Below, in pieces: positions 2,493 to 40,084 of a stretch of 46,559 nucleotides of DNA. The notes under the pieces are model-generated. The model was given only the letters and a program-made list of their open reading frames with translations, did no database searches and had not been told where the DNA came from. This DNA is from a virus. The translations under genes were made by a program, and so were the position numbers. Position 1 is the stretch's first letter, and each line of letters opens with the position of its first letter. The DNA lies in UHGV virus genome UHGV-0172001. The stretch is one strand, 5' to 3'.

Positions 2493-4949
2493 TTAAAAAT
2501 CAGCCTGACTCGGGATCAGTTTTTGCCAGATAGCTGAAACGTATTTTGCCTGGTAACGGGCGTCATCAAGTGCATTATGGCGCTCACCTTCGAATGGAAT
2601 AGCCGTTCTGGCATCGAAGTCTATGGCTTTCCCCAGCTCAACGATTGTGCGTACATCGCGATCGTTGTAGTAGCTCCACGGGCAGGGGATCCCCTGCCGT
2701 TCGTATGAACGGCGTAAAATCACGTTGTTGAAGTTGGCTTCCTTCCCCCAGATCTGAACAAAAAATTCACCGGAGTTTTCGTCGATAAATTCCCGCAATT
2801 GCAGCAGTGCATCATCTAACGGGATTTCATCGGTCATAATGGCAGATTGCGCTTCGCGTGATTGTTTACACCAGTACTTTATTGCGCCCCGGTCGATGAC
2901 TCCGCCAGCAGTTTCCAGATCGATGGTCTTGCTAAATTCCGGCCCCATATCTCCGGTTTGCGGATCGTAAAATATTGCACCTATTGAGATAATCGGGGCA
3001 TCGGGACTTGTGCCCATAGTTTTAAGGACGATCATCAAGTGGTGCCACACCCTGCTGGTGGATGTGCTTTCATGATGACCGTTCACCTTAACTGAGTGAT
3101 TTGTCGCCTCGCCAGTTTTATTATCGCTATCGTGATGCTGATTGCTGCCAGGGTTCTCCTTGTGTGGATGTTCAGCGTCTTCCATTTCCTTCGGATCATT
3201 TTCCTGAACTTCAACCTGATTCTCTTCATCGAATGTTTCCTGGTATGTTGCGTCGCCCATCACCGCGCCACAATCAGGGCAGTTGCCGCCACCGCTCTGA
3301 CCGCAGGCGGTGCAGACTTTTTCCAGTTCCTGTTGCGCTACTGGCTCGGATTGTTTCGTTTCTGGCTCGTTTTGTTGCGCATTTCGGCTGTTTTGTTCCG
3401 CTTTCTGGTCGTTCTGTTCCGATTCTTGCTGGTTCTGGTTTACAGAATCGCGGGTTTCAATCCCCTTCACCCATTTCGGATCATTCGGGTCGCTAATCCC
3501 TGCAACAAATTCTCCGCGAGAGGCCGCAAGCAACTTATTGGCGTCAGGCTGGCTGATATTGGATGCCTGCATAATTTTGTTTACTTCGTCAGCGGTAACT
3601 TTTACCTGATTAGCCGGATCTATCTGTGCCTGAGTATCCAGCGATTGCGTGTCCTGGCGATGTTCAGTTGTATCCGGCTCCATTGTTTCAGCCGTTGCCT
3701 GTTCATCTGCCATTGCGTCAGACGGTTGTGATTTTTCCTCATTATTTTTTTCTTCTTCTGTTTCGCGTTTAGCAGCCAGTTCGCGGTTAACTTCTTCCAG
3801 GATATCTTTTTCCGGTGTATGTCGTGCAGCAGCGAGAGTTTCCTCGGTAGGGTTCTCGTGATCAGTCTCCGTTAAATAGGCGTTGATATACCCCTGAAGG
3901 CGTCCCGGGTAATGATAAAACTCAGGGTGTGCGCTCCGGATAAGTGCAAAAATAGCGGCGCGGGAGTAATCCAGGATACCCGGGATTGCGCGAAGTGCTG
4001 CGGACCATTCTTTGAACGGACTTTCTTTCTTCCGGACGACTTCTTTTGCGCGACGATAAACGCTGCCCGGAATTTCATAAATATTAAAATCCATCGGAAG
4101 TGTGGCCGCTGCTATCTCCACATCCAGCGTATCGAAGGTGTGTACTAAATTCGGATTGCGATCGGTTTTGTTCCCTCCACCGGCATTAGCACCGGAAGCC
4201 GTGCGGGTGATGCGTGAAACACGATTTCCTCTCATCCACTCTTTTGTCAGCAGACCGCGATCGGTGTAGTCAGCGTCCAGATATGCTTCGAAAAAAGCAG
4301 TCATTAGCCCCAGGCCTGAATTGCCAGGATTAGGGAAAACTTTGTCAGTATCACGCACCAGTTTGTGGAGATCGCGAATTTCCAGTGGATCGAGCAGACT
4401 GGTTTTATGCGAAATAGCGAGGGCAGTAACAGCCGGTAGTTCTTCAGCCCGTGCAATGTGTAATGCCTGGAGTTCGTCGCGTGAAACGTGCGTTACCGGT
4501 TTTTCGCTGCCGCGTTGAGCAAGCCAGCGAATGGGCAGTTCCTGACCGGAAACCGGCAGGAGCATGTTCTCCTCAATCTCAGCCATGTCTTCGCCGTTGA
4601 CGTTGGTATTGTCAGTGCTGGCTGGTTTATCCTGAACAGAGGGCGAGGGCGCGATAAGTACCATTGTGATACCATCTTCCCCGCCTTTTTCGTATCGGTT
4701 GCAGAATTTGGTATCAAACACGCCTTCCGGAGGAAGGTCATTCACAACGGGTAAATGGACGCGAACAGGTTTTTTAAAATCCTCTTCGTCAAATCCAGCA
4801 TCGTCCATTGCGACAACACCGCGTGATATTGCAACCGATAATTTTTTTGCTGTGCGCCAGTAAAAACCGCCTTTAATCCCAAGGCGTTTTCTGACTTTGT
4901 CATTTTTTGCTTCGTAATATAGTGCAATTTCTTCTTTATCAGCGCTCAT
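2493..4949 (-). CDS. Large prophage exonuclease: N-terminal region resembling Rac RecE (exodeoxyribonuclease VIII) non-catalytic part, acidic low-complexity centre with a CxxC...CxxC knuckle, C-terminal DnaQ-like DEDDh 3'-5' exonuclease domain
   Basis: 818 aa; C-terminal motifs [10 protein letters not shown] (Exo I, DxE) and [13 protein letters not shown] (Exo III, H-x4-D); [16 protein letters not shown] zinc-ribbon-like; position between xis and the immunity region. Confidence 0.7.
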
Positions 4950-19068: not shown

Positions 19069-20115
19069 ATGGCTAATACTGTAAAAATATCCAGTTGTGA
19101 GTTAATCAACGCTGATTGCCTGGAATTTATCCAGACCTTACCGGAAAACTCTGTCGATCTGATAGTCACAGACCCGCCATACTTTAAAGTGAAGCCCGAA
19201 GGCTGGGATAACCAGTGGAAGGGTGACGATGATTATCTGAAATGGCTGGACCAGTGTCTGGCGCAATTCTGGCGGGTATTAAAGCCTGCCGGAAGTCTTT
19301 ACCTGTTCTGTGGTCATCGCCTGGCATCTGATATCGAAATCATGATGCGTGAACGCTTTAATGTGCTGAACCACATTATCTGGGCGAAGCCGTCCGGGCG
19401 CTGGAACGGGTGCAACAAGGAAAGCCTGCGGGCGTATTTTCCGGCAACAGAACGCATTCTGTTTGCTGAACATTATCAGGGGCCATACCAGCCCAAAAAT
19501 GACGGCTATGCGGCAAAGGGGCGCGAGCTAAAACAGCACGTCATGGCCCCGCTGATTTCTTACTTTCGTGATGCGCGTGAATTACTGGGAATAACGTCAA
19601 AACAGATAGCGGAAGCCACCGGAAAGAAAAACATGGCTTCGCACTGGTTTGGCACCAGTCAGTGGCAGTTGCCGAACGAAGGCGATTATCTGAAATTACA
19701 GGCGTTGTTTGCGCGTGTTGCAGCAGAAAAACATCAGCGCGGTGAACTGGAAAAGCCACACCACCAGCTGGTCAGCACATACAGTGAACTGAACCGGCAA
19801 TATGCCAGTCTGCTGGAGGAGTACAAATCCCTGCGGCGTTATTTTTCCGTATCGGCTGCCGTTCCGTATACGGATGTCTGGACGCACAAGCCTGTGCAGT
19901 ATTACCCCGGCAAACATCCCTGTGAGAAACCGGCGGATATGTTGCGTCAGATAATTACCGCCAGCAGCCATCCGGGAGATTTGGTCGCTGATTTTTTTAT
20001 GGGGTCGGGGTCAACAATAAAAGCAGCATTATCGCTGGGAAGGCGTGCAATAGGTGTGGAACTGGAAGAAGAGAGATTTAACCAGACTGTAATTGAAATA
20101 AAAAATAATCGTTAA
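19069..20115 (+). CDS. DNA N6-adenine/N4-cytosine methyltransferase, beta class, orphan
   Basis: Motif IV DPPY near the N-terminus (LIVTDPPYF) and motif I FxGxG near the C-terminus (DFFMGSGST); no adjacent restriction gene. Confidence 0.9.
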   Translation: MANTVKISSCELINADCLEFIQTLPENSVDLIVTDPPYFKVKPEGWDNQWKGDDDYLKWLDQCLAQFWRVLKPAGSLYLFCGHRLASDIEIMMRERFNVLNHIIWAKPSGRWNGCNKESLRAYFPATERILFAEHYQGPYQPKNDGYAAKGRELKQHVMAPLISYFRDARELLGITSKQIAEATGKKNMASHWFGTSQWQLPNEGDYLKLQALFARVAAEKHQRGELEKPHHQLVSTYSELNRQYASLLEEYKSLRRYFSVSAAVPYTDVWTHKPVQYYPGKHPCEKPADMLRQIITASSHPGDLVADFFMGSGSTIKAALSLGRRAIGVELEEERFNQTVIEIKNNR

Positions 20116-20284: not shown

Positions 20285-20360
<76 letters not shown>

Positions 20361-20363
20361 TAT

Positions 20364-20439
<76 letters not shown>

Positions 20440-27077: not shown

Positions 27078-28645
27078 GCGGGGGACTGGTGGATCTTCAT
27101 GGGCAACCTCTGCGGCATAGCATGGGATATTCCGGTGGTGGTACCGGATTTGGCGGGCAACTGGCTGAATGGCTGCCTGCACCGGAAAGTGCTGATGTGG
27201 CACTCTTACCTTCCATTCAGCTGGGTAACGCCCGTGCGGATGATCTGGTCCGTAACAACGGTATTGCCGCAAATGCTGTGGAAATTCATAAAGACCATAT
27301 CGTCGGGCACATGTTTCGCCTGAGTTACCGACCCAACTGGCGCTGGCTGGGGATGTCGGAAGCTGATTCGCATGCCTTTATTGAAGATGTTGAGGCGGCG
27401 TGGATGGAATATTGCGATCCGGTGTTTGGTTCGATGGATGTGGAAGGGCGTCGCTCGTTTACCGAATTTATTCGTGAAGGGGTGGGGGTCCATACTTTTA
27501 ACGGTGAAATTTTTGTCCAGCCAGTATGGGATACGGAATCCACGTCATTATTCAGAACAAAATTCAAGACCATCAGTCCGAAGCGCGTCAGCACGCCCGG
27601 TTATGGCATCGGCGATCGTTTTATGCGTGCCGGAGTGGAAATCAACCGTCACGGAAAGGCGATGGCTTATCATGTTCAGGACGATGACTGGCCTGGCTAC
27701 GGTGTCAGCAACTGGACACGGATTGCGGCGACGCTGCCCTCCGGGCGACCGGGAATGATCCATGTGTTTCAGCCGCAGGAGGACGGACAGACGCGCGGGG
27801 CCAACCAGTTTTATTCCGTGATGGAGCGCCTCAAGATGCTCGACACACTACAGGCCACGCAACTGCAGTCGGCGGTGGTGCGGGCGATGTATGCCGCGAC
27901 GATTGAATCCACACTGGATTCGGAAAAAGCATTTGAATATATCGCCGGTGTGGGTGATGGCGGAAAAAATCCCCTGAACACCATCATGAAAGGCTATGCG
28001 CGCTATTACGCCACCAATACGGTAAAGATGGGTGGGGTTCGTATTCCGCATCTTTATCCGGGGGATTCACTGAATCTGCAGACAGCACAGAATGCGGATA
28101 ATGGTTTCTCTGAACTGGAAAAGGCGCTGTTACGTTACATTGCTGCCGGACTGGGCGTGTCCTATGAGCAGCTTTCCCGTGATTATTCACAGGTCAGTTA
28201 TTCCAGTGCCAGGGCATCCGCCAATGAGTCGTGGCGGTATTTTATGGGGAAACGAAAATTTGTGGCCAGCCGACTGGCGTCACAGATGTTTGCCTGCTGG
28301 CTGGAGGAAGCCCTTATTCGCGGTGTGATCCGCCCACCGAAATCCCGTTTCTCATTCTGGGAGGCCCGTTCCGGGTGGTGTCGTGCCGAGTGGATTGGTG
28401 CCGGTCGCATGGCGATTGATGGCCTTAAGGAGGTGCAGGAGGCGGTGATGCGTATTGAAGGTGGCCTGAGCACGTACGAGAAGGAGCTGGCCCTGATGGG
28501 CGATGACTATCAGGAGATTTTCCGCCAGCAACTGCGTGAAAGCCAGGAGCGACAGGCGGCTGGTCTTCCCCGCCCCATCTGGATAAAGGATACGTTTCAG
28601 CAGCAGATCCGACAGACAACGGGAGAAAAAGTCGATGCGTCGTAA
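27074..28645 (+). CDS. Portal protein (lambda gpB-like)
   Basis: GNARADDLVRNNG, LQTAQNADNGFS, LLRYIAAGLGVSYEQLSRDY, GRMAIDGLKEVQEAVM: near-collinear with lambda B. Confidence 0.95.
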   Translation: MSGGLVDLHGQPLRHSMGYSGGGTGFGGQLAEWLPAPESADVALLPSIQLGNARADDLVRNNGIAANAVEIHKDHIVGHMFRLSYRPNWRWLGMSEADSHAFIEDVEAAWMEYCDPVFGSMDVEGRRSFTEFIREGVGVHTFNGEIFVQPVWDTESTSLFRTKFKTISPKRVSTPGYGIGDRFMRAGVEINRHGKAMAYHVQDDDWPGYGVSNWTRIAATLPSGRPGMIHVFQPQEDGQTRGANQFYSVMERLKMLDTLQATQLQSAVVRAMYAATIESTLDSEKAFEYIAGVGDGGKNPLNTIMKGYARYYATNTVKMGGVRIPHLYPGDSLNLQTAQNADNGFSELEKALLRYIAAGLGVSYEQLSRDYSQVSYSSARASANESWRYFMGKRKFVASRLASQMFACWLEEALIRGVIRPPKSRFSFWEARSGWCRAEWIGAGRMAIDGLKEVQEAVMRIEGGLSTYEKELALMGDDYQEIFRQQLRESQERQAAGLPRPIWIKDTFQQQIRQTTGEKVDAS

Positions 28646-30251
28646 TTTATCGCATATTGCCGCCATGGCATTTAATGAACCGCTTTTACTGGAGCCCGCT
28701 TATGCGCGGGTTTTCTTTTGCGCGCTGGGTAAAGAGATGGGGGCCGGCAGCCTTGCCGTTCCTCAGCAGGCTGTTCAGCTTGATGCTGATGGTATGCAAC
28801 TGGCTGTGACTGACTATATGGCGGGCGGTCAGCGCCCGGCAAAGAGTTACCAGGTGAAGAATGGCATCGCCATTCTGCCGGTGAGCGGCACGCTGGTGCA
28901 TAAACTGGGTACCCTGCGCCCTTACTCCGGCATGACAGGCTATGACGGCCTGACTGCCCGTCTTCAGATGGCGGTGAATGATCCGGATGTGCGCGGCATT
29001 TTGCTGGATATCGACAGCCCGGGCGGTCAGGCTGCCGGGGCGTTTGACTGTGCTGACATGATTTACCGCCTGCGGGAACAGAAGCCCGTGTGGGCGCTGT
29101 GTAATGATATGGCCTGTTCAGCCGCCATGTTGCTGGCGGCAGCCTGTACGCGTCGGCTGGTCACGCAGACGGCAAAAATTGGTTCGATTGGTGTGATGAT
29201 GGCGCACACCAGTTACGAGAAACAACTGGCACAGGAAGGGGTGGATATCACGCTGATTTACTCCGGGCAGCACAAGGTTGACGGCAACAGTATTCAGGCA
29301 TTGCCGGCAGGTGTGCGTGCAGATTTTCAGCGCCGTATTGATGAGGCCCGCCGGATGTTTGTCGACAAGGTGGCGCTTTATACGGGGCTGAGTTCAGAGG
29401 CGGTGATGAATACCGAGGCTGCCGTTTATGACGGTCAGGCAGGCATTGATGCAGGCCTGGCTGATCAACTGATTAATGCTGCAGATGCCGTTGAAGTGAT
29501 GGTTTCTGCACTGAATGACTCTGTTACGAAGGAGAATGCAATGACTGTTAAAAATCTCACCGTTGCTGAAGCGGTGGCCCAGGAAAATCAGCGCGTGATG
29601 GGGATCCTGAATTGTCAGGAGGCGAAAGGGCGCGAGCAACTGGCGCAAATGCTGGCAGAACAACCGGGAATGTCGGTTGAGCAGGCGAAAACGTTGCTGG
29701 CAGCTGCGCCGGTTGCCGGTACTGACAGCACGGGGGGGCAGATTATGGCGCTGCCGGAAGCAAAGGGGCGTGAGCAACTGGCACAGATGCTGGCAGGTCA
29801 ACCGGGAATGACGGTGGAGCAGGCGAAAGCGTTTCTGGCAGCAGCCCCTGCTGCCAGTGCTGCAGGCACAGGCGATAAGATTATGGCGTTGCCGGAAGCT
29901 AAAGGGCGTGAACAACTCGCGCAGGCGCTGGCTGAACAGCCGGGAATGACCGTTGACCAGGCAAAAACGTTACTGGCAGCGGCACCGGTTGCCTGTTCTG
30001 CAAGTGTCGGCGAGCAGATTATGGCGCTGCCGGAGGCGAAAGGGCGCGAGCAACTTGCACAGGCACTGGCAGAACAACCGGGAATGACAGTGGCGCAGGC
30101 AAAAACGTTGCTGGCAGCCGCGCCGACGGCATCGCAGCCGTCACAGGAAACACTTTTTGATCGCTTTATGGCACAGCATGCTGCCAGTGCGGTTTCCGGT
30201 GGTGGAGCTGCCGGGCACGGAGAAGAAGATCTGCTGATGAGTATGCCGTAA
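28635..30251 (+). CDS. Head maturation protease / scaffold (lambda gpC with Nu3-equivalent region), with an expanded repeat domain
   Basis: HIAAMAFNEPLLLEPAYARVFFCAL, PYSGMTGYDGL, GVMMAHTSY match lambda C; C-terminal part contains four 46-aa tandem repeats. Confidence 0.9.
   Translation: MRRNLSHIAAMAFNEPLLLEPAYARVFFCALGKEMGAGSLAVPQQAVQLDADGMQLAVTDYMAGGQRPAKSYQVKNGIAILPVSGTLVHKLGTLRPYSGMTGYDGLTARLQMAVNDPDVRGILLDIDSPGGQAAGAFDCADMIYRLREQKPVWALCNDMACSAAMLLAAACTRRLVTQTAKIGSIGVMMAHTSYEKQLAQEGVDITLIYSGQHKVDGNSIQALPAGVRADFQRRIDEARRMFVDKVALYTGLSSEAVMNTEAAVYDGQAGIDAGLADQLINAADAVEVMVSALNDSVTKENAMTVKNLTVAEAVAQENQRVMGILNCQEAKGREQLAQMLAEQPGMSVEQAKTLLAAAPVAGTDSTGGQIMALPEAKGREQLAQMLAGQPGMTVEQAKAFLAAAPAASAAGTGDKIMALPEAKGREQLAQALAEQPGMTVDQAKTLLAAAPVACSASVGEQIMALPEAKGREQLAQALAEQPGMTVAQAKTLLAAAPTASQPSQETLFDRFMAQHAASAVSGGGAAGHGEEDLLMSMP
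29607..30160 (+). repeat. Four tandem 138-bp in-frame repeats within the protease/scaffold gene
   Basis: Units starting near 29607, 29745, 29883 and 30021, each encoding ALPEAKGREQLAQxLAEQPGMTVxQAKxLLAAAP... Confidence 0.85.
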
Positions 30252-33245: not shown

Positions 33246-33808
33246 TGGAACCATTGATGATGGGAACCTGGCATCAGGCAGTGATTGACAGTCTGAAACA
33301 AATTCCCTGGGTGGAAGATGCCGATGACTACCCGGAAAAAGTGACGCAACTGGTGACGCCTGCCGTGTTTGTGGATGTGCCTGGCTGGGACAAGGCACAG
33401 TTTGCCGACGGGCAAACGCGGGTCACACTGAAATGCGATCTGTTTGTGGTGACTGATCGGGCCGGAAAGACGGAAAACGTGCCAAAACCGCAGATATTTG
33501 CCCGCTGTCTGGCAATGGATTTATCTGACTGGATTGATGGAGCCACGTTCGGGCTGGATAACGTTGACCCGGCGGTTTTTATCGATGCTGAGGTGGATAC
33601 CTTCGACCGACTGCTGGACGACTACATCGTTTTCCGTGTCTCTTTTGAACAGGACATTCCGGTCGGCGAAGATCCGTTTGCAGTTCCGGCAGGTGCGCCG
33701 TTACAGGAAGTCTGGCTGGGTAAAGTACCGGAAACCGGTAAAAAGCATGTGCAGGATTATCGTCTTATCTGGAAAGCGGAGGGCACCGGCGATGAGTCTG
33801 GCGGATGA
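33242..33808 (+). CDS. Putative tail terminator / completion protein (gpU-like position)
   Basis: 188-aa ORF, ATGA coupling with the upstream gene; precedes baseplate gpV. Confidence 0.4.
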   Translation: MMEPLMMGTWHQAVIDSLKQIPWVEDADDYPEKVTQLVTPAVFVDVPGWDKAQFADGQTRVTLKCDLFVVTDRAGKTENVPKPQIFARCLAMDLSDWIDGATFGLDNVDPAVFIDAEVDTFDRLLDDYIVFRVSFEQDIPVGEDPFAVPAGAPLQEVWLGKVPETGKKHVQDYRLIWKAEGTGDESGG

Positions 33809-34415
33809 AGTGGCAGAGTTACGCCGCAGGGTGGCGGACATGGTCCGTCGCGGCGTGGTGGAAGAGGTGATCCCGGGTAGCCCGGTGATGGTCCGGGTGG
33901 ATATCGGAGATGTGCTTTCGCCGCCGTTGCCCTGGATTCAGGTGCAGTCCGGGCGTTACATGCAGGTCAGTAATTACCCGGCACCCGGAGATGCGGTCAC
34001 GGTGATATCGGAGGCAGGTGATCTGCGTAATGGTCGGGTGTATCCGGGGGCCAACATTGACGCGATTCCGGTACCGGCGGGCAGTGAACACGAGCATGTT
34101 ATTTTGTTTGATACCGGAACGGAGATCCGTTACGACCGCCAGGCTAATGCCCTGTCCATCACGCTGGTTGAAGGCGGCAGCTATAAAATCACCGGCAGGG
34201 GAACGCTTGACGGTCCGGTGGAAATCACGGATACCCTGACTGTGCAGGGAAAAACGAAGATTAATGCCGATACGCAGGTTCTGGGCAATATCGGTGCCTC
34301 ACAGGAGATCACCGACAAAACCGGTAGCATGAGTAAAATTCGCAAAATTTATAATACTCATGATCACCCTGGCGACAGCGGGGGAACCACCCGTAAACCT
34401 AACCAGGAAATGTGA
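33792..34415 (+). CDS. Baseplate assembly protein V (P2 gpV-like spike)
   Basis: C-terminal NTHDHPGDSGGTT matches P2 V HTHKHPGDSGGTT; ATG 33792 after GGAGGG. Confidence 0.85.
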   Translation: MSLADEVAELRRRVADMVRRGVVEEVIPGSPVMVRVDIGDVLSPPLPWIQVQSGRYMQVSNYPAPGDAVTVISEAGDLRNGRVYPGANIDAIPVPAGSEHEHVILFDTGTEIRYDRQANALSITLVEGGSYKITGRGTLDGPVEITDTLTVQGKTKINADTQVLGNIGASQEITDKTGSMSKIRKIYNTHDHPGDSGGTTRKPNQEM

Positions 34416-34449: not shown

Positions 34450-34806
34450 ATGATTGGTATTGATTCCGCCACTGGCAGATATCTGCACGGTAACGAACAT
34501 CTGCGTCAGTCCGTCACCGATATTTTATCAACACCGGTCGGCAGCCGGGTACTTCTCAGGGAATACGGCAGTAGGTTGTTCAGTCTGCTTGATAACCCGC
34601 AGGATGATTTTACGCGGGTGAGGATTGTCCGTGAAACGGCAACCGCCCTTGAACGCTGGGAACCCCGCCTGACCCTCCGGCGGGTGGAGGTGACGTGGAC
34701 AGGAGAAGGAAGCGCCTGGCTGACGCTTGTCGGGGTGAACAACGAAACACAGGAAACGATTCGACTCGAGGAGATAAAAATTGGCAGCATCTCAGGCAAT
34801 CATTGA
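34450..34806 (+). CDS. Baseplate protein W (P2 gpW / gp25-like)
   Basis: 118 aa; MIGIDSATGRYLHGNEHLRQSVTDILSTPVGSRVLLREYGSRL is typical of the GPW/gp25 family. Confidence 0.85.
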   Translation: MIGIDSATGRYLHGNEHLRQSVTDILSTPVGSRVLLREYGSRLFSLLDNPQDDFTRVRIVRETATALERWEPRLTLRRVEVTWTGEGSAWLTLVGVNNETQETIRLEEIKIGSISGNH

Positions 34807-35695
34807 TCTGTCCGCGATACCTGTACCGGATGCGGTGGAGGTGCCGGACACCGCTGTACTGATCACTCAGATAGTGGCGAAATACCAGGAACTGGACACG
34901 TTGTTTTCGGCCCTGGTGGAATCCGATCCGGCGTATAAATGGGCAGAGGCACTGGCTTTTCGGGTGGCGCTGATGCGCCAGCAGGTCAATGATGCTGTCC
35001 GGGCTGTACTGCTTGCCAGTGCCCGCAGGAACGATCTGGATCAGATTGGTGCGAATTTTCAGGTGCAACGTCTGGTGATTACCCCGGCAGATGACAGCAC
35101 TATTCCGCCCACGCCTGCGGTGTATGAAGATGATGACGCTTTTCGCGAACGTATTCAGTTGTCATGGGCACGACTCAGCACCGCAGGCGCGAGAAACGCA
35201 TACCACTATTTTGCACAGAGTGCCGATCCTGATGTGCTGGATGTGAAAGCCTACGGACCGGAAACGCATTCACAGGAAGGGCGTGTTTTTCTTTATGTGT
35301 TAGCGCGTACAGGAAATGGTACGGCATCACAACCTCTGCTGGATAAGGTGGCGGCGTCAGTCAATGATGATGAAATTCGACCCCTGACGGATTTTGTCAG
35401 CGTCCGTGCGGCAGAAATTATTCCCTACGATGTGGTGGCGGATATCCATATTCCCTACGGGCTGGATGGTGAACTGGTGATGAAAAATGCCCGCCAGGCG
35501 CTGCAGACCTACACTGACAGTGTGCACCGGATTGGCTCTGTGGCGTCCTGCTCAGGTATGGACGGAGCCCTGCATCAGACGGGGGTGATTACGGTGGCAC
35601 TGAAATCGCCGGCCAGTGATATTGTTCCGGCGATGGGGCAGGCTCCATGGTGTCGCTCAGTCACACTGAACAAGGTGGAGACAACCGATGAATGA
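34781..35695 (+). CDS. Baseplate assembly protein J (P2 gpJ-like)
   Basis: IIDLSAIPVPD N-terminus and LVITPADDSTIPPTPAV match P2 J; TTG start at 34781 with GAGGAG 7 nt upstream. Confidence 0.85.
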   Translation: MAASQAIIDLSAIPVPDAVEVPDTAVLITQIVAKYQELDTLFSALVESDPAYKWAEALAFRVALMRQQVNDAVRAVLLASARRNDLDQIGANFQVQRLVITPADDSTIPPTPAVYEDDDAFRERIQLSWARLSTAGARNAYHYFAQSADPDVLDVKAYGPETHSQEGRVFLYVLARTGNGTASQPLLDKVAASVNDDEIRPLTDFVSVRAAEIIPYDVVADIHIPYGLDGELVMKNARQALQTYTDSVHRIGSVASCSGMDGALHQTGVITVALKSPASDIVPAMGQAPWCRSVTLNKVETTDE

Positions 35696-38096
35696 CAAAA
35701 TCAGAAGCATACTACCGGTCAGCGCCAGCCGGGCAGAGCGGGTGGTGGACAGTACCGCCGGTGATATGCTGGCGGAAATCGCGGTCTGTCTGATCCGGTA
35801 TGTCAAAAATCCCGATTTATGTCCTGCTGAATTGCTGCCATGGCTGGCCTGGGAAATGTCGGTGGATACCTGGAACGAACACTGGACAGAGGCGGAAAAA
35901 AGGGCGGCAATAAAGCGTGCTGCCTATATCCATCGTCACAGGGGAACAAAAGCCGCACTGAATGAATCCCTGGCAGACAGTCCGTTCCGGTCGCAGATTG
36001 TGGAGTGGTATGAGCAGACACCACCGGGGGAGCCCTATACCTTCCGGCTGAATGTGGAGCAGAAGGACCTGCCGGTTCTGATGAACGACCACCAGGATTT
36101 GAAGCATGCCGTATTACGGGCAAAAAATCTGCGCAGCTGGTTCAGTGTTCATATTTACGGAAGTAGTCGCGGAAATGGCTTTGGTTATGGTTATGTCACT
36201 GCGACGGAAAAACTGAAAAACAGGATACTGCCGTCAGAAATACAGCTGATACCAGATAATCTGCGACTGCTCCCCGGAGAAGAGGTGTCTGTAAAGGTGA
36301 CGGTGCTTCCCCGGATTGCAGATGATCGTTCGTTTACGGTACAGCCCGAAGATGAAGGCGTGGCGGCAATCAGTATCTCTGGCGATATTATTACTCTGAC
36401 AGGGAAGCGGTTTGGTCACACCACTGTAATTGTTTCAACGGTGAATGGTGTGATTGCCAGACTGCCCGTAAATGTTGTGTCTGTTGTTCAGGTTATTGTT
36501 CGTGCTGATAATGTCAGCAGACCTCTGTTTTTTATAGACGCTCAGGATAATGACTTCACCATTGATTATGGTGATGGAGTGGACTGCAGGGATTATGTCA
36601 TTGAAGCAGGTATGGTTAAAACCACCCGGGAATTACCCGTCGGGGAAGAAATTACGCTGACGATTAAAGGTGCTGAGAGTGTGACATTCTACTCATCATC
36701 AGCATTAAACAGACCCAACCCATTACTGGAGATTATCAGGGTCAGTGGCACCAGAAGATATATGTCGCAGTTTGCAAATTTGCAGAATACATTACGAAAA
36801 ATTCATGCTGGTGCTTTTGATAATTTGCCTCGTGCGCTTTCATTCTCGGGGGCGTTTCGGGGATGTTCAGCATTAACTGAATTACCTGAAAACCTTTTTG
36901 CACAATGTGCAGAGGTATCTTCATGGAATGAGGCATTTTACGGATGTACTGGTCTGACAGATATTCCGGTTTTATTTGCACCTGAATCAAATGCGCGCAC
37001 GCTTTCAAAGTTGTTCTACGGTTGTTCGAAAATAGTCCGGGTTCCGGAAGCGTTGTTTGCAGGTATGGATGACGCCTGGACTTTTGAGTCAGCATTTTAC
37101 GGATGCAGCAAGATGGTTAATGCTCCGGCCATTCCCGCACGCAGTCTTCAGAGCCTTTACATGACTTTTTCCGGTTGTAGTGAGCTGGCTGAGCTTCCTG
37201 TGATATGGGGGAAAGAAAACGAAAGCCATGCGTTATCGATTAATTTGTCTTACGCATTTTACGATTGCCGGTCTCTGACTGTTATTCCTGAAAACTGGCT
37301 GGATGTTATCCGGCATCGGATGGCGCATGTCAGAGGGATATTTAATAGGTGTTCCAGCATACGCAGTGTCCCCTCACGATTATTTGCCGGAGCAAATAAT
37401 CTACGCACTGCTGACAATGCGTTTGATGGCTGCCGCGGTATTACCTGTATCGGAGAGGGGGTGTTTGAGGGATGCCGGAGTCTGAGCGAAATAAACTATG
37501 CGTTCCATTACTGCAGTGCGCTTGAGACAATCGGCAACAGGGTTTTTGCGGATTGTGTGTCTCTGAGATCAATGGCATCTACGTTTGCCAACAGCAGTAT
37601 TGTCAATGCCGGAGAAGAACTTTTCGCTGGTTGTACATCCCTGACATTAATGGAGTCCGTTTTTGTAAACTGCCGGAAACTGGTTATGTTGCCGGACAGT
37701 ACGTTCAGAGGGTGCACTTCGCTGAAAAGCGTACCTTATCTTTTTTCTGGTTGCAGTGCATTAACGAGGATCCAGGAGGCATTATTTTCCGACTGCTCAC
37801 TTACCGGAGGAGGTGGTATGTTCCGGTGGTGTTCGTCGCTGACACAAATTCCATCTGGATTAATTAATCATCGGGACAGCAATGCGGGTATAGCTGAAAT
37901 GTTCCGGGAATGCACATCACTGGCAATGGATATTAATGAAATATTTCCTCATGCCTTCACTGAAAGGCGCAATCTGTCGTATGTGTTTTATCGTTGCAGT
38001 AATGTGACGGGGAGTAAGTCAGAATTTCTGGCGAAATTCCCGGAACCGATATCTGTTGCTTATGCATTTGATTATTGTCCGCTACTTACAGACTGA
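35688..38096 (+). CDS. Baseplate protein I (P2 gpI-like N-terminal ~175 aa) fused to an Ig-like segment and about 20 BspA-type leucine-rich repeats; putative receptor-binding baseplate protein
   Basis: N-terminus NPDLCPAELLPWLAWEMSVDTWNEHWTEAEKRAAIKRAAYIHRHRGT parallels P2 gpI; Ig-like segment about aa 210-290; from about aa 380, about 20 repeats of the 23-aa unit aFxGCxxLxxIPxxxF. Confidence 0.8.
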   Translation: MNDKIRSILPVSASRAERVVDSTAGDMLAEIAVCLIRYVKNPDLCPAELLPWLAWEMSVDTWNEHWTEAEKRAAIKRAAYIHRHRGTKAALNESLADSPFRSQIVEWYEQTPPGEPYTFRLNVEQKDLPVLMNDHQDLKHAVLRAKNLRSWFSVHIYGSSRGNGFGYGYVTATEKLKNRILPSEIQLIPDNLRLLPGEEVSVKVTVLPRIADDRSFTVQPEDEGVAAISISGDIITLTGKRFGHTTVIVSTVNGVIARLPVNVVSVVQVIVRADNVSRPLFFIDAQDNDFTIDYGDGVDCRDYVIEAGMVKTTRELPVGEEITLTIKGAESVTFYSSSALNRPNPLLEIIRVSGTRRYMSQFANLQNTLRKIHAGAFDNLPRALSFSGAFRGCSALTELPENLFAQCAEVSSWNEAFYGCTGLTDIPVLFAPESNARTLSKLFYGCSKIVRVPEALFAGMDDAWTFESAFYGCSKMVNAPAIPARSLQSLYMTFSGCSELAELPVIWGKENESHALSINLSYAFYDCRSLTVIPENWLDVIRHRMAHVRGIFNRCSSIRSVPSRLFAGANNLRTADNAFDGCRGITCIGEGVFEGCRSLSEINYAFHYCSALETIGNRVFADCVSLRSMASTFANSSIVNAGEELFAGCTSLTLMESVFVNCRKLVMLPDSTFRGCTSLKSVPYLFSGCSALTRIQEALFSDCSLTGGGGMFRWCSSLTQIPSGLINHRDSNAGIAEMFRECTSLAMDINEIFPHAFTERRNLSYVFYRCSNVTGSKSEFLAKFPEPISVAYAFDYCPLLTD

Positions 38097-38108: not shown

Positions 38109-39539
38109 ATGCCATCAGGGCTGACGTTAACAAAAAAAGGGGCTGCCGAAATAGAGTCTGCTTATCAGGCTGGACAGGTAGTGACGATCACTCATGTACT
38201 GACAGGAGATGGCGGCGGGCAGACGTTACCGTCAACGCCGGATGAAATGGCAGCAATGTCGGCATTGCTGGGGCAATTTGGTCAGGAGCCATTTTCAGAA
38301 GGTAAGGTTGATGAGGGATTTATTAGTGGTGACATTGTTATTGACTGTAAAAAATACCCAGGAAAGACACTGCGTGAACTGGGGATTGTAAGCAGCAGCG
38401 GTACGCTGATAGCGTACGGGCGTTATCCGGATACGTACTTACCGGCACAGACAGATTCTGTCATCAAAGAGGTTATCCTGACACTGGTACTGGGGCTGAC
38501 GCATGCGCAGAACGTGACGCTGGAGCTTGACCCGTCCAGGGTGATTATCACGCAGGAGGCAGGAGATAAACGCTATCTGCGTATCAGAGAGAATCTTGCC
38601 GATGTGGAAGATAAAGATGAAGCGGTTGATAACCTCGGGTTAAAACCGACGGTGGACAAGGCAAAAAATGCCGTCCAGCGCGACGGCGATACCATGACCG
38701 GCGAGCTGAAAATCCGTGGTGTTAATGCGCTGCGAATTTTCAACGAAGCCTTTGGTCTGATTTTTCGTCGTTCGGAAGAGTGCCTGCACCTTATTCCTAC
38801 CAGTGAAGGTCAGGGCGAGAATGGTGATATTGGTCCACTTCGCCCGTTCACTATTAATCTGCGGACGGGTGAAATATCTATGTCGCATAAAGTGTCTGTT
38901 GGCGGTGGTTCGCAGGTCAATGGTGCACTGGGTATCGGCGTTCAGAACGCGCTGGGCGGAAACTCAATTGCTTTCGGGGATAACGATACAGGTATAAAAC
39001 AAAACGGTGACGGTATTCTGGATGTTTATGCGAATGGTCAGCATGTATTTCGTTTTCAGAATGGTGTTGCCATGGCGTTAAAAAATATTCAGGCCGGGAA
39101 TGCCAGAATATTCACATTATCCAGTTCCAACAGCTCCACGAAAAATGCAGGGTTTAATTTATGGGGTAATTCATCCCGACCTGTAGTTGCAGAGCTTGGT
39201 GATGATTCCGGCTGGCATTTTTACAGCCAGAGAAATACCGATGGCAGTATCACATTCGCTGTAAACGGACAGATGATCCCATCAAACTATGGAAATTTCG
39301 ATGCCCGTTATCAGCAGCGAAATGGCGGCGTGCAGGATGTGCGTTATGGTTCCGAAATGTTTTATAACCCGGGAGGTAACCAGGTGTCCTGGACATTTCG
39401 CTCACCTTCAGGCCACGGATTATCCGGTATTAATGTGCAGGAAACCGGAAGCAATTCGGCAGATAACATCGGCGGCGTATATTACCGACCTCTTCAGAAA
39501 CTGATTAATGGCACCTGGTATAACGTGGCGAGTGTTTAA
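38109..39539 (+). CDS. Tail fiber protein (gpH-like)
   Basis: N-terminus KKGAAEIESAYQAGQVVTITHVLTGDGGGQ resembles the conserved N-terminal domain of P2-type tail fibers; Gly/Asn-rich C-terminal region. Confidence 0.8.
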   Translation: MPSGLTLTKKGAAEIESAYQAGQVVTITHVLTGDGGGQTLPSTPDEMAAMSALLGQFGQEPFSEGKVDEGFISGDIVIDCKKYPGKTLRELGIVSSSGTLIAYGRYPDTYLPAQTDSVIKEVILTLVLGLTHAQNVTLELDPSRVIITQEAGDKRYLRIRENLADVEDKDEAVDNLGLKPTVDKAKNAVQRDGDTMTGELKIRGVNALRIFNEAFGLIFRRSEECLHLIPTSEGQGENGDIGPLRPFTINLRTGEISMSHKVSVGGGSQVNGALGIGVQNALGGNSIAFGDNDTGIKQNGDGILDVYANGQHVFRFQNGVAMALKNIQAGNARIFTLSSSNSSTKNAGFNLWGNSSRPVVAELGDDSGWHFYSQRNTDGSITFAVNGQMIPSNYGNFDARYQQRNGGVQDVRYGSEMFYNPGGNQVSWTFRSPSGHGLSGINVQETGSNSADNIGGVYYRPLQKLINGTWYNVASV

Positions 39540-39541
39540 CA

Positions 39542-40084
39542 ATGTTGCATTTAAAAAATATTACTGCGGGTAATCCGAAAACCGCAGAACAATACCAGAT
39601 GACAAAAAAATATGATGTTACCTGGCTTTTTTCGGAAGACGACAAAAACTGGTATGAAGAACTGAAGAATTTCGCCAGCGACACAATAAAAATAGCTTAC
39701 ACCGGAGATGGTCGCGTGGTATGGGTCGGTAAGGATGTGACAGGCATTGAACCCCGCAACACCAGTGTTATTGAGGTTCCGGACATTACCGCTAACCGTC
39801 GTATCACCGCGCCGGGCTACTGGTTTTACCGCGACGATAAATTTGTCTTCGACTACAAACTTAAAGCAGAAGATGAGCGCGATGCTCTTCTGGCTCAGGT
39901 CAGCATCATAACCAGCGAATGGGAAAAAGACCTGCTGCTGGGATTAATCAGTGACGAAGACAGGGAGAAGCTGAAAGCGTACCGCATTTACGCGAAATCG
40001 CTGCAGGCGATGGATTTCAGCGCTATTACGGATAAGACCACTTACAACAATATTAGCTGGCCTGAGCAGCCACAAAATACCTGA
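39542..40084 (+). CDS. Tail fiber assembly protein (Tfa / gpG-like)
   Basis: Immediately downstream of the fiber gene; C-terminal ISWPEQP motif typical of Tfa proteins. Confidence 0.8.
   Translation: MLHLKNITAGNPKTAEQYQMTKKYDVTWLFSEDDKNWYEELKNFASDTIKIAYTGDGRVVWVGKDVTGIEPRNTSVIEVPDITANRRITAPGYWFYRDDKFVFDYKLKAEDERDALLAQVSIITSEWEKDLLLGLISDEDREKLKAYRIYAKSLQAMDFSAITDKTTYNNISWPEQPQNT

Follow-up and report, generated by a model that had tools for sequence, protein, structure and literature searches.

A long P2-type baseplate protein gpI with a C-terminal arm of Ig-like and BspA-type leucine-rich repeat domains in a lambdoid prophage

The baseplate protein gpI of phage P2 and its pyocin R2 counterpart Tri2 (PA0619; structures 6u5b and 6u5k) are small proteins of ~176-193 amino acids (aa). 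The gene considered here lies in UHGV virus genome UHGV-0172001, a stretch of 46,559 nucleotides (the window), and encodes a gpI of 802 aa. Its residues 1-176 are like P2 gpI and Tri2 and its gene has the same slot, after gpJ and before the tail fibre; the protein runs 626 residues further, through immunoglobulin (Ig)-like and leucine-rich repeat (LRR) domains. The same structural slot in the wedge is held by gp23 of Pam3, CD1372 of diffocin and gp7 of phage T4, each of which is single in its heterotriplex, peripheral and associated with fibre attachment. The T4 gp7 protein is an instance of a single-copy wedge subunit that can carry large extra domains, and the arm of the window protein may be comparable to these. 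In Pam3 there is one gp23 per triplex "at the periphery", and the fibre docks onto sites of this protein (PMC9942802). The single-copy subunit of diffocin is joined to the fibre through its C-terminal region, and contraction is set off by rearrangement of the triplex (PMC10996793). An LRR solenoid on the single-copy wedge subunit is described in neither of these two papers.

The distal part of the protein has its closest described counterparts in the BspA/PARCEL (DUF285) surface proteins of bacteria and protists. The two share membership of the LRR_5/TIGR02167 family, a conserved hydrophobic skeleton between hydrophilic positions that vary, and internally pseudo-symmetric repeats with a period of ~26-27 aa. 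However, the BspA/PARCEL proteins are secreted or membrane-anchored, whereas the LRR of the window is fused to a baseplate subunit. The window protein does not have the features of an exported surface protein, since a gpI domain occupies its N-terminus and its gene lies in a tail operon; no dedicated signal-peptide predictor was run. The PARCEL paper makes no mention of phages (PMC2996958), and a 2020 jumbo-phage paper stated that no phage had until then been described with PARCEL domains (PMC7765460).

Domain architecture and authenticity of the 802-aa gpI

The gene and its parts are the following:

35688..38096, + strand: long-form gpI, 802 aa plus stop (from the open reading frame listing); predicted single-copy wedge subunit with a C-terminal Ig-Ig-LRR arm
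35688..36215, + strand: gpI/Tri2 anchor domain, aa 1-176, with Tail_P2_I, TIGR01634 and PA0619 matches
36219..36476, + strand: Big_2-type Ig-like domain, ~aa 178-263
36477..36773, + strand: second beta-sandwich domain, ~aa 264-362, with a conserved D-Y-G-D-G motif
36798..38093, + strand: LRR solenoid of BspA/PARCEL type, aa 371-802, ~16 units of ~27 aa

The open reading frame (ORF) begins with ATG and is uninterrupted over its whole length, exactly as the earlier note on this DNA had claimed. The identity of the anchor is firmly established by residues 9-149, which match Pfam Tail_P2_I (PF09684) with 124.7 bits against a cutoff of 20.6 (E 3e-36), by a TIGR01634 match of 97.2 bits (cutoff 30.05), and by the similarity of residues 13-128 to pyocin R2 Tri2 PA0619 (6u5b; E 3.4e-18), which is also found by Foldseek (E 2.9e-5). 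The Big_2 model (PF02368) scores 17.2 bits here, below its cutoff of 22.8, and 29-39 bits in the aligned orthologs; the domain has an Ig-like beta-sandwich fold. The C-terminal part matches LRR_5 (PF13306) with 64.8 bits (cutoff 27.7; E 9.5e-18) and the TIGR02167 "PARCEL / 26-residue repeat" model with 40 bits (cutoff 30), and its sequence matches in the PDB are the BspA-type structures 4gt6, 4fs7 and 4h09 and the TpLRR protein 6mlx. A full-length AlphaFold2 (AF2) model has a predicted local distance difference test (pLDDT) score of 86 and exceeds 90 over most of residues 180-802. With Foldseek this model retrieves 4gt6, 6u5b and 2l04 from the PDB and many phage "BspA family" or "26-residue repeat" proteins from a viral structure library. 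Profiles and a confident structure model thus agree on the Phage_tail_I N-terminus, Ig-like part and BspA-type LRR that had been predicted, with one amendment: the Ig-like segment is indeed Ig-like, its first domain being probably of the Big_2 type, but consists of two beta-sandwich domains.

The repeat unit also differs from that first proposed, i.e. about 20 copies of a 23-aa unit. The autocorrelation of BLOSUM scores over residues 371-802 is highest at a lag of 27 (0.23; the maximum of 200 shuffles is -0.53), with secondary peaks at lags 53 and 13/14, and in the AF2 model short strands recur at intervals of 13-14 residues from 371 to 801. The period of 27 together with a strand every 13-14 aa yields ~16 units of ~27 aa, each made of two pseudo-symmetric half-units (~32 half-units in all). 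Nineteen strict F-x-x-C-x-x-[LIMV] motifs are spaced by 13/14 or by 24-40 aa, most by 26-30. A 27-aa unit with two half-units fits the "palindromic amphipathic" description of PARCEL (PMC2996958). The 23-aa TpLRR register is ruled out by the autocorrelation, by the period of conservation and by the strand spacing of the model.

Positional entropy across 32 long homologs separates the LRR into two classes of positions. The skeleton, F(-3), C(0), L(+3) and L/F(+10), is nearly invariant (0.31-0.86 bits), I/V-P also belonging to it; the positions between skeleton residues are hypervariable, reaching 2.2-2.7 bits. The conservation profile is itself periodic at 27 (r = 0.38). A fixed skeleton with a variable surface would be the signature of a binding scaffold. 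Recent expansion of the repeats at the DNA level was considered and rejected, as Tandem Repeats Finder detects no array within the gpI-LRR gene; the sole array between 28 and 40.5 kb is in the head protease gene. This array, at 29618-30125, consists of 3.7 copies of a 138-bp unit (80% matches) in the C-terminal half of an S49-peptidase head protease/scaffold-like gene (ORF 28635-30251), and encodes ~4 copies of a 46-aa unit, "ALPEAKGREQLAQxLAEQPGMTVEQAKTLLAAAP...".

The 802-aa gene is real and under selection. Independent assemblies from ENA, NCBI and Logan yield 12 contigs with an identical product, and NCBI assembly GCA_012253025.1 encodes the identical protein. The ortholog of E. coli M8 (803 aa) is 73% identical in aa sequence at a synonymous divergence (dS) of ~1, and differs in length by one 1-aa indel only. 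The ratio of nonsynonymous to synonymous divergence (dN/dS) against this ortholog is 0.086 in aa 1-180, rises to 0.21 in aa 181-370 and stands at 0.175 in aa 371-802, and all three segments are under purifying selection. An artefact or decaying fusion, in which a collapsed frameshift or an assembly join had linked gpI to a downstream gene, might be suspected from the unusual length relative to the 176-193-aa norm and from the break in composition at the junction. It can nevertheless be given almost no credence in view of the identical contigs, of uninterrupted orthologs of 775-1049 aa in many species, of purifying selection on every segment, and of a junction at which no slippery site or alternative-frame product is conserved among three orthologs. 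The doubt that the earlier note had itself raised on this score is removed by the 12 contigs and by the dN/dS values. Programmed recoding at aa 176, giving a short and a long gpI, was likewise rejected: the A5 runs arise solely from Lys codons and form no canonical heptamer, reading in the -1 frame gives products of 19, 40 and 7 codons that the three orthologs do not conserve, and the +1 stop is conserved just because the L/M-K codons are.

Distribution, mosaic junction and portability of the extension

At the DNA level, 74 of 5,426 complete E. coli genomes carry the gpI N-domain. In junction-specific DNA searches of the same 5,426 genomes, a short gpI end runs straight into the fibre gene in 63, and a detectable homolog of the extension is present in only 4; three of these are from mice, and the fourth, from a human, has a variant of 861 aa. 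Within its own phage group the long form is therefore the rarer one, as had been supposed. The supposition fails beyond this group of E. coli prophages, however, as the architecture is common in Enterobacteriaceae prophages and already present in NCBI. In protein searches, Tail_P2_I, Big_2 and LRR_5 are combined in uninterrupted proteins 775-1049 aa long from E. coli, E. albertii, Salmonella, Trabulsiella and Klebsiella; databases call these just "phage tail protein I". Two sequence clusters with this architecture have 1551 and 877 members, of which at least the larger is from Klebsiella; NCBI gives the name "phage tail protein I [Escherichia coli]" to a cluster representative that is 99% identical; 14 Klebsiella phage records match the protein over at least 80% of its length, e.g. 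gp35 of ST16-OXA48phi5.4 (1008 aa); and PHROG 9915 ("unknown function") matches it at E 1e-249. The protein and its family are consequently already in databases under a generic name, and the architecture appears to be functionally uncharacterised.

Most representatives of the Tail_P2_I family are shorter than 300 aa, and the window protein is not of the small single-domain class (~170-200 aa). The survey of N-domain lengths in the representative library is unfit for frequencies, as the library seems to fold short forms into long-form clusters, the 193-aa short form not being listed in it. gpI-family representatives of 528-677 aa also exist, e.g. P0053 (546 aa) and P0056 (578 aa), some with Big_2 and some without a recognised C-terminal Pfam domain. 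It seems that gpI is a general platform for varied C-terminal additions.

Among the annotated long proteins, those of E. coli M8 (WP_129541818.1, 803 aa), strain 401651 (WP_446907434.1, 861 aa) and Klebsiella phage ST16-OXA48phi5.4 (YP_009882546.1) have the three-part architecture and the synteny of the window. Identity to the window protein is 73% for M8 and 40% for ST16-OXA48phi5.4. The annotated long proteins differ from it in the number of LRR units and in surface residues, and none has a described function; the Klebsiella versions exceed it by ~200 aa and have a small extra ORF and a shorter fibre downstream. A small ORF encoding 68-74 aa separates the long wedge-LRR gene from the fibre gene in the Klebsiella, E217-like and HP1-like versions (L003 9003-9215, L009 11448-11672, L010 11024-11230) and is absent from the window and the E. 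coli versions; it could encode a dedicated assembly factor.

The boundary of the extension is sharply defined. Over aa 1-176 the syntenic gpI of the E. coli C5 prophage (193 aa) matches the window protein with 94% identity; beyond this point homology ceases. Against the nearest long relatives identity falls from 90-96% over aa 1-176 to 55-58% across the beta-sandwich region and to 38-44% across the LRR. GC content at third codon positions (GC3) falls at aa 176 from 0.585 to 0.43 in the beta-sandwich region and 0.42 in the LRR, the flanking conserved tail genes having values of 0.55-0.60. Since identity and GC3 drop at the same point, the extension behaves as an exchangeable, compositionally foreign cassette, and by its pattern of divergence it would resemble the host-range segments of tail fibres. 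It may have been acquired horizontally by gpI as a C-terminal cassette.

The same module is found on other anchors. In an E217/Pam3-like prophage (P0045) the Big_2+LRR cassette is joined to a Phage_Wedge1/DUF2612 anchor, and in an HP1-like prophage of K. oxytoca (P0048) to a divergent anchor; both genes come directly after Baseplate_J and before the fibre. Their cassettes are 38-39% (P0045) and 28-30% (P0048) identical to that of the window protein, about as similar as the cassettes of the Klebsiella gpI-LRR proteins, while the anchors are only 12-15% identical. The Big_2+LRR module is present in Peduoviridae Klebsiella phages as well. Thus the Ig+LRR module is portable between wedge anchors, and its presence on three unrelated ones suggests that it could serve as a graftable specificity domain.

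The tail operon and the surrounding prophage

The genes flanking the long gpI are:

34450..34806, + strand: gpW/gp25-like sheath initiator, 118 aa by the gene calls of homologous loci (Pfam GPW_gp25, 2e-15)
34781..35695, + strand: gpJ-like baseplate protein, the two-copy triplex subunit (Pfam Baseplate_J, 3.8e-23; synteny in loci L001, L002 and L005)
38109..39539, + strand: gpH-like tail fibre, 476 aa (Phage_tail_fib N-domain, 1.8e-17; phrog_6859 tail fibre, 1e-141)
39542..40084, + strand: tail fibre assembly chaperone (Pfam Caudo_TAP, 2e-24; phrog_136, 5e-59)

The order gpW-gpJ-gpI-fibre-chaperone-sheath-tube is that of a contractile-tail module and is annotated likewise in relatives. The gpI gene shares its first 8 nt with the gpJ-like gene, as in annotated orthologs, and a gap of 12 nt separates gpI from the fibre gene, which is followed by the chaperone, sheath and tube genes. 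The sheath initiator was placed by mapping the call in L005 (8763-9119) onto the window. Upstream, at 33498-34415, the mechanical ORF call is a 305-aa product with a TTG start; the real start is probably near 33792, as homologous loci annotate a 207-aa baseplate assembly protein V.

A fibre and its chaperone are thus located immediately downstream of the long gpI, as the earlier note had stated. The window fibre and its counterpart in the short-gpI C5 prophage are 69% identical, the N-terminal attachment domain and the tip being conserved; identity to the fibre of the long-gpI M8 prophage is 83%. Since the fibre is kept, and is alike in a short-gpI relative, the arm is an addition and not a replacement. 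That each baseplate would carry two distinct distal structures, as was also proposed, is a reasonable expectation given a fibre and chaperone nearly the same as in the short-gpI relative.

The whole window is an almost complete lambdoid prophage, with a lambda-type integrase, Q antiterminator, gpA terminase and lambda-like head combined with the P2-type contractile tail. In the Logan contig L008 (SRR35920869) the identical 802-aa gpI-LRR and tail genes are joined to another head module, which has a ClpP-protease/capsid fusion and Phage_cement_2 where the window and L005-L007 have the lambda-like S49/decoration/gpE head; head-tail module mosaicism therefore occurs within one prophage group. Elsewhere in the window, the lambda-type integrase at 1075-2193 adjoins an ORF of 818 aa (2493-4949, - strand) with an Exonuclease VIII (RecE-like) domain and a C-terminal Rv2179c-like 3'-5' exoribonuclease domain. 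Two adjacent phage tRNA genes, Thr(TGT) at 20285-20360 and Gly(TCC) at 20364-20438, lie just downstream of an N6/N4 DNA methylase ORF (19069-20115).

Possible roles of the Ig-Ig-LRR arm

By the comparison with Tri2 and Pam3 gp23, the window gpI would be the single-copy subunit of a P2-type wedge triplex, extended by a Big_2 Ig domain, a beta-sandwich and an LRR of ~430 residues. One gpI would be present per wedge, at the periphery where the fibre docks, and hence there would be six monomeric Ig-Ig-LRR arms per virion. These arms would project from the baseplate rim, in the order Ig, beta-sandwich, LRR, beside the trimeric gpH-like fibres, and the arm could act as a second determinant of host range and adsorption, placed on the subunit through which fibre binding is coupled to the baseplate iris. 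The most likely function of the arm, judged to be reasonably probable, is to bind an auxiliary receptor or adhere to the surface of the bacterium. Its position, cassette-like divergence, variable surface and portability would speak indirectly for such a function.

Several observations weigh against this assignment. The N-terminal domain of the AF2 model is of low confidence (pLDDT 40-80), so that the model does not fix the geometry of the arm relative to the baseplate. Overall dN/dS of the LRR, taken over the whole segment, is well below 1. LRR and Ig domains are generic binding scaffolds, which leaves room for a structural or regulatory role. No description of a gpI-LRR fusion was found in the literature; a match to CASP16 proved irrelevant, as it concerned LRRK2 and T5 pb1. 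Incorporation into the virion, six-fold stoichiometry, outward projection, ligand binding and an effect on host range are all properties that we infer.

A mainly architectural or regulatory role is one alternative: as the single-copy triplex subunit is the fibre dock, a peripheral scaffold there, comparable to the outer domains of T4 gp7, might position, retract or stabilise the fibres or the baseplate without binding a receptor, and an LRR could hold the fibre shaft. Large peripheral domains of the homologous T4 wedge protein are structural. However, close relatives with nearly the same fibre and a 94%-identical anchor lack the extension, which is thus not needed for assembly, and the hypervariable surface and much faster distal divergence are more easily reconciled with an external ligand that changes than with an internal partner that is conserved; a mainly architectural role is accordingly regarded as unlikely. 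The combination of Ig-like domains with a BspA-type LRR raises another possibility, that the ligands of the arm are not bacterial but are glycoproteins of animal mucus or extracellular matrix, by which the phage would be held in a gut mucosal niche. Host matrix proteins are bound by surface proteins of the BspA family in oral and gut bacteria, and mucin glycans can be bound by Ig-like decorations of phages. The carriers are gut Enterobacteriaceae, including the three mouse-gut E. coli isolates, and bacterial recognition may already be covered by a fibre that is unchanged between long- and short-gpI phages. Yet the module is found in several tail lineages on the baseplate rim by the fibre, i.e. 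in a host-recognition slot, and its pattern of divergence parallels that of tail-fibre cassettes. Binding of non-bacterial ligands in place of the bacterial receptor is judged to be quite improbable.

Receptor binding or adhesion at the bacterial surface thus remains the preferred function of the arm. A broader proposal, put forward tentatively and with considerable doubt, is that the Ig-Ig-LRR arms are a distinct, portable class of monomeric non-fibre receptor-binding modules on the single-copy triplex subunit, which, as cellular BspA/PARCEL proteins do, could recognise protein or glycoprotein ligands, possibly including those of animal mucosal surfaces. If so, gut prophages of E. coli, Klebsiella and Salmonella would gain from it a second specificity of adsorption or niche retention that is independent of the fibre. 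This is not a new principle, as peripheral additions to wedge proteins have precedents and databases already contain the family; the case is one of a wedge protein with a peripheral add-on, with an LRR as the distal module of a phage. A natural test pair is formed by relatives that differ only in having or lacking the arm, their anchors being 94% identical and their fibres nearly the same. If the arm does bind receptors, host range in this prophage group would be set by two independent modules and not by the fibre alone, which would be relevant to the prediction of host range from sequence and to the engineering of phages and tailocins.

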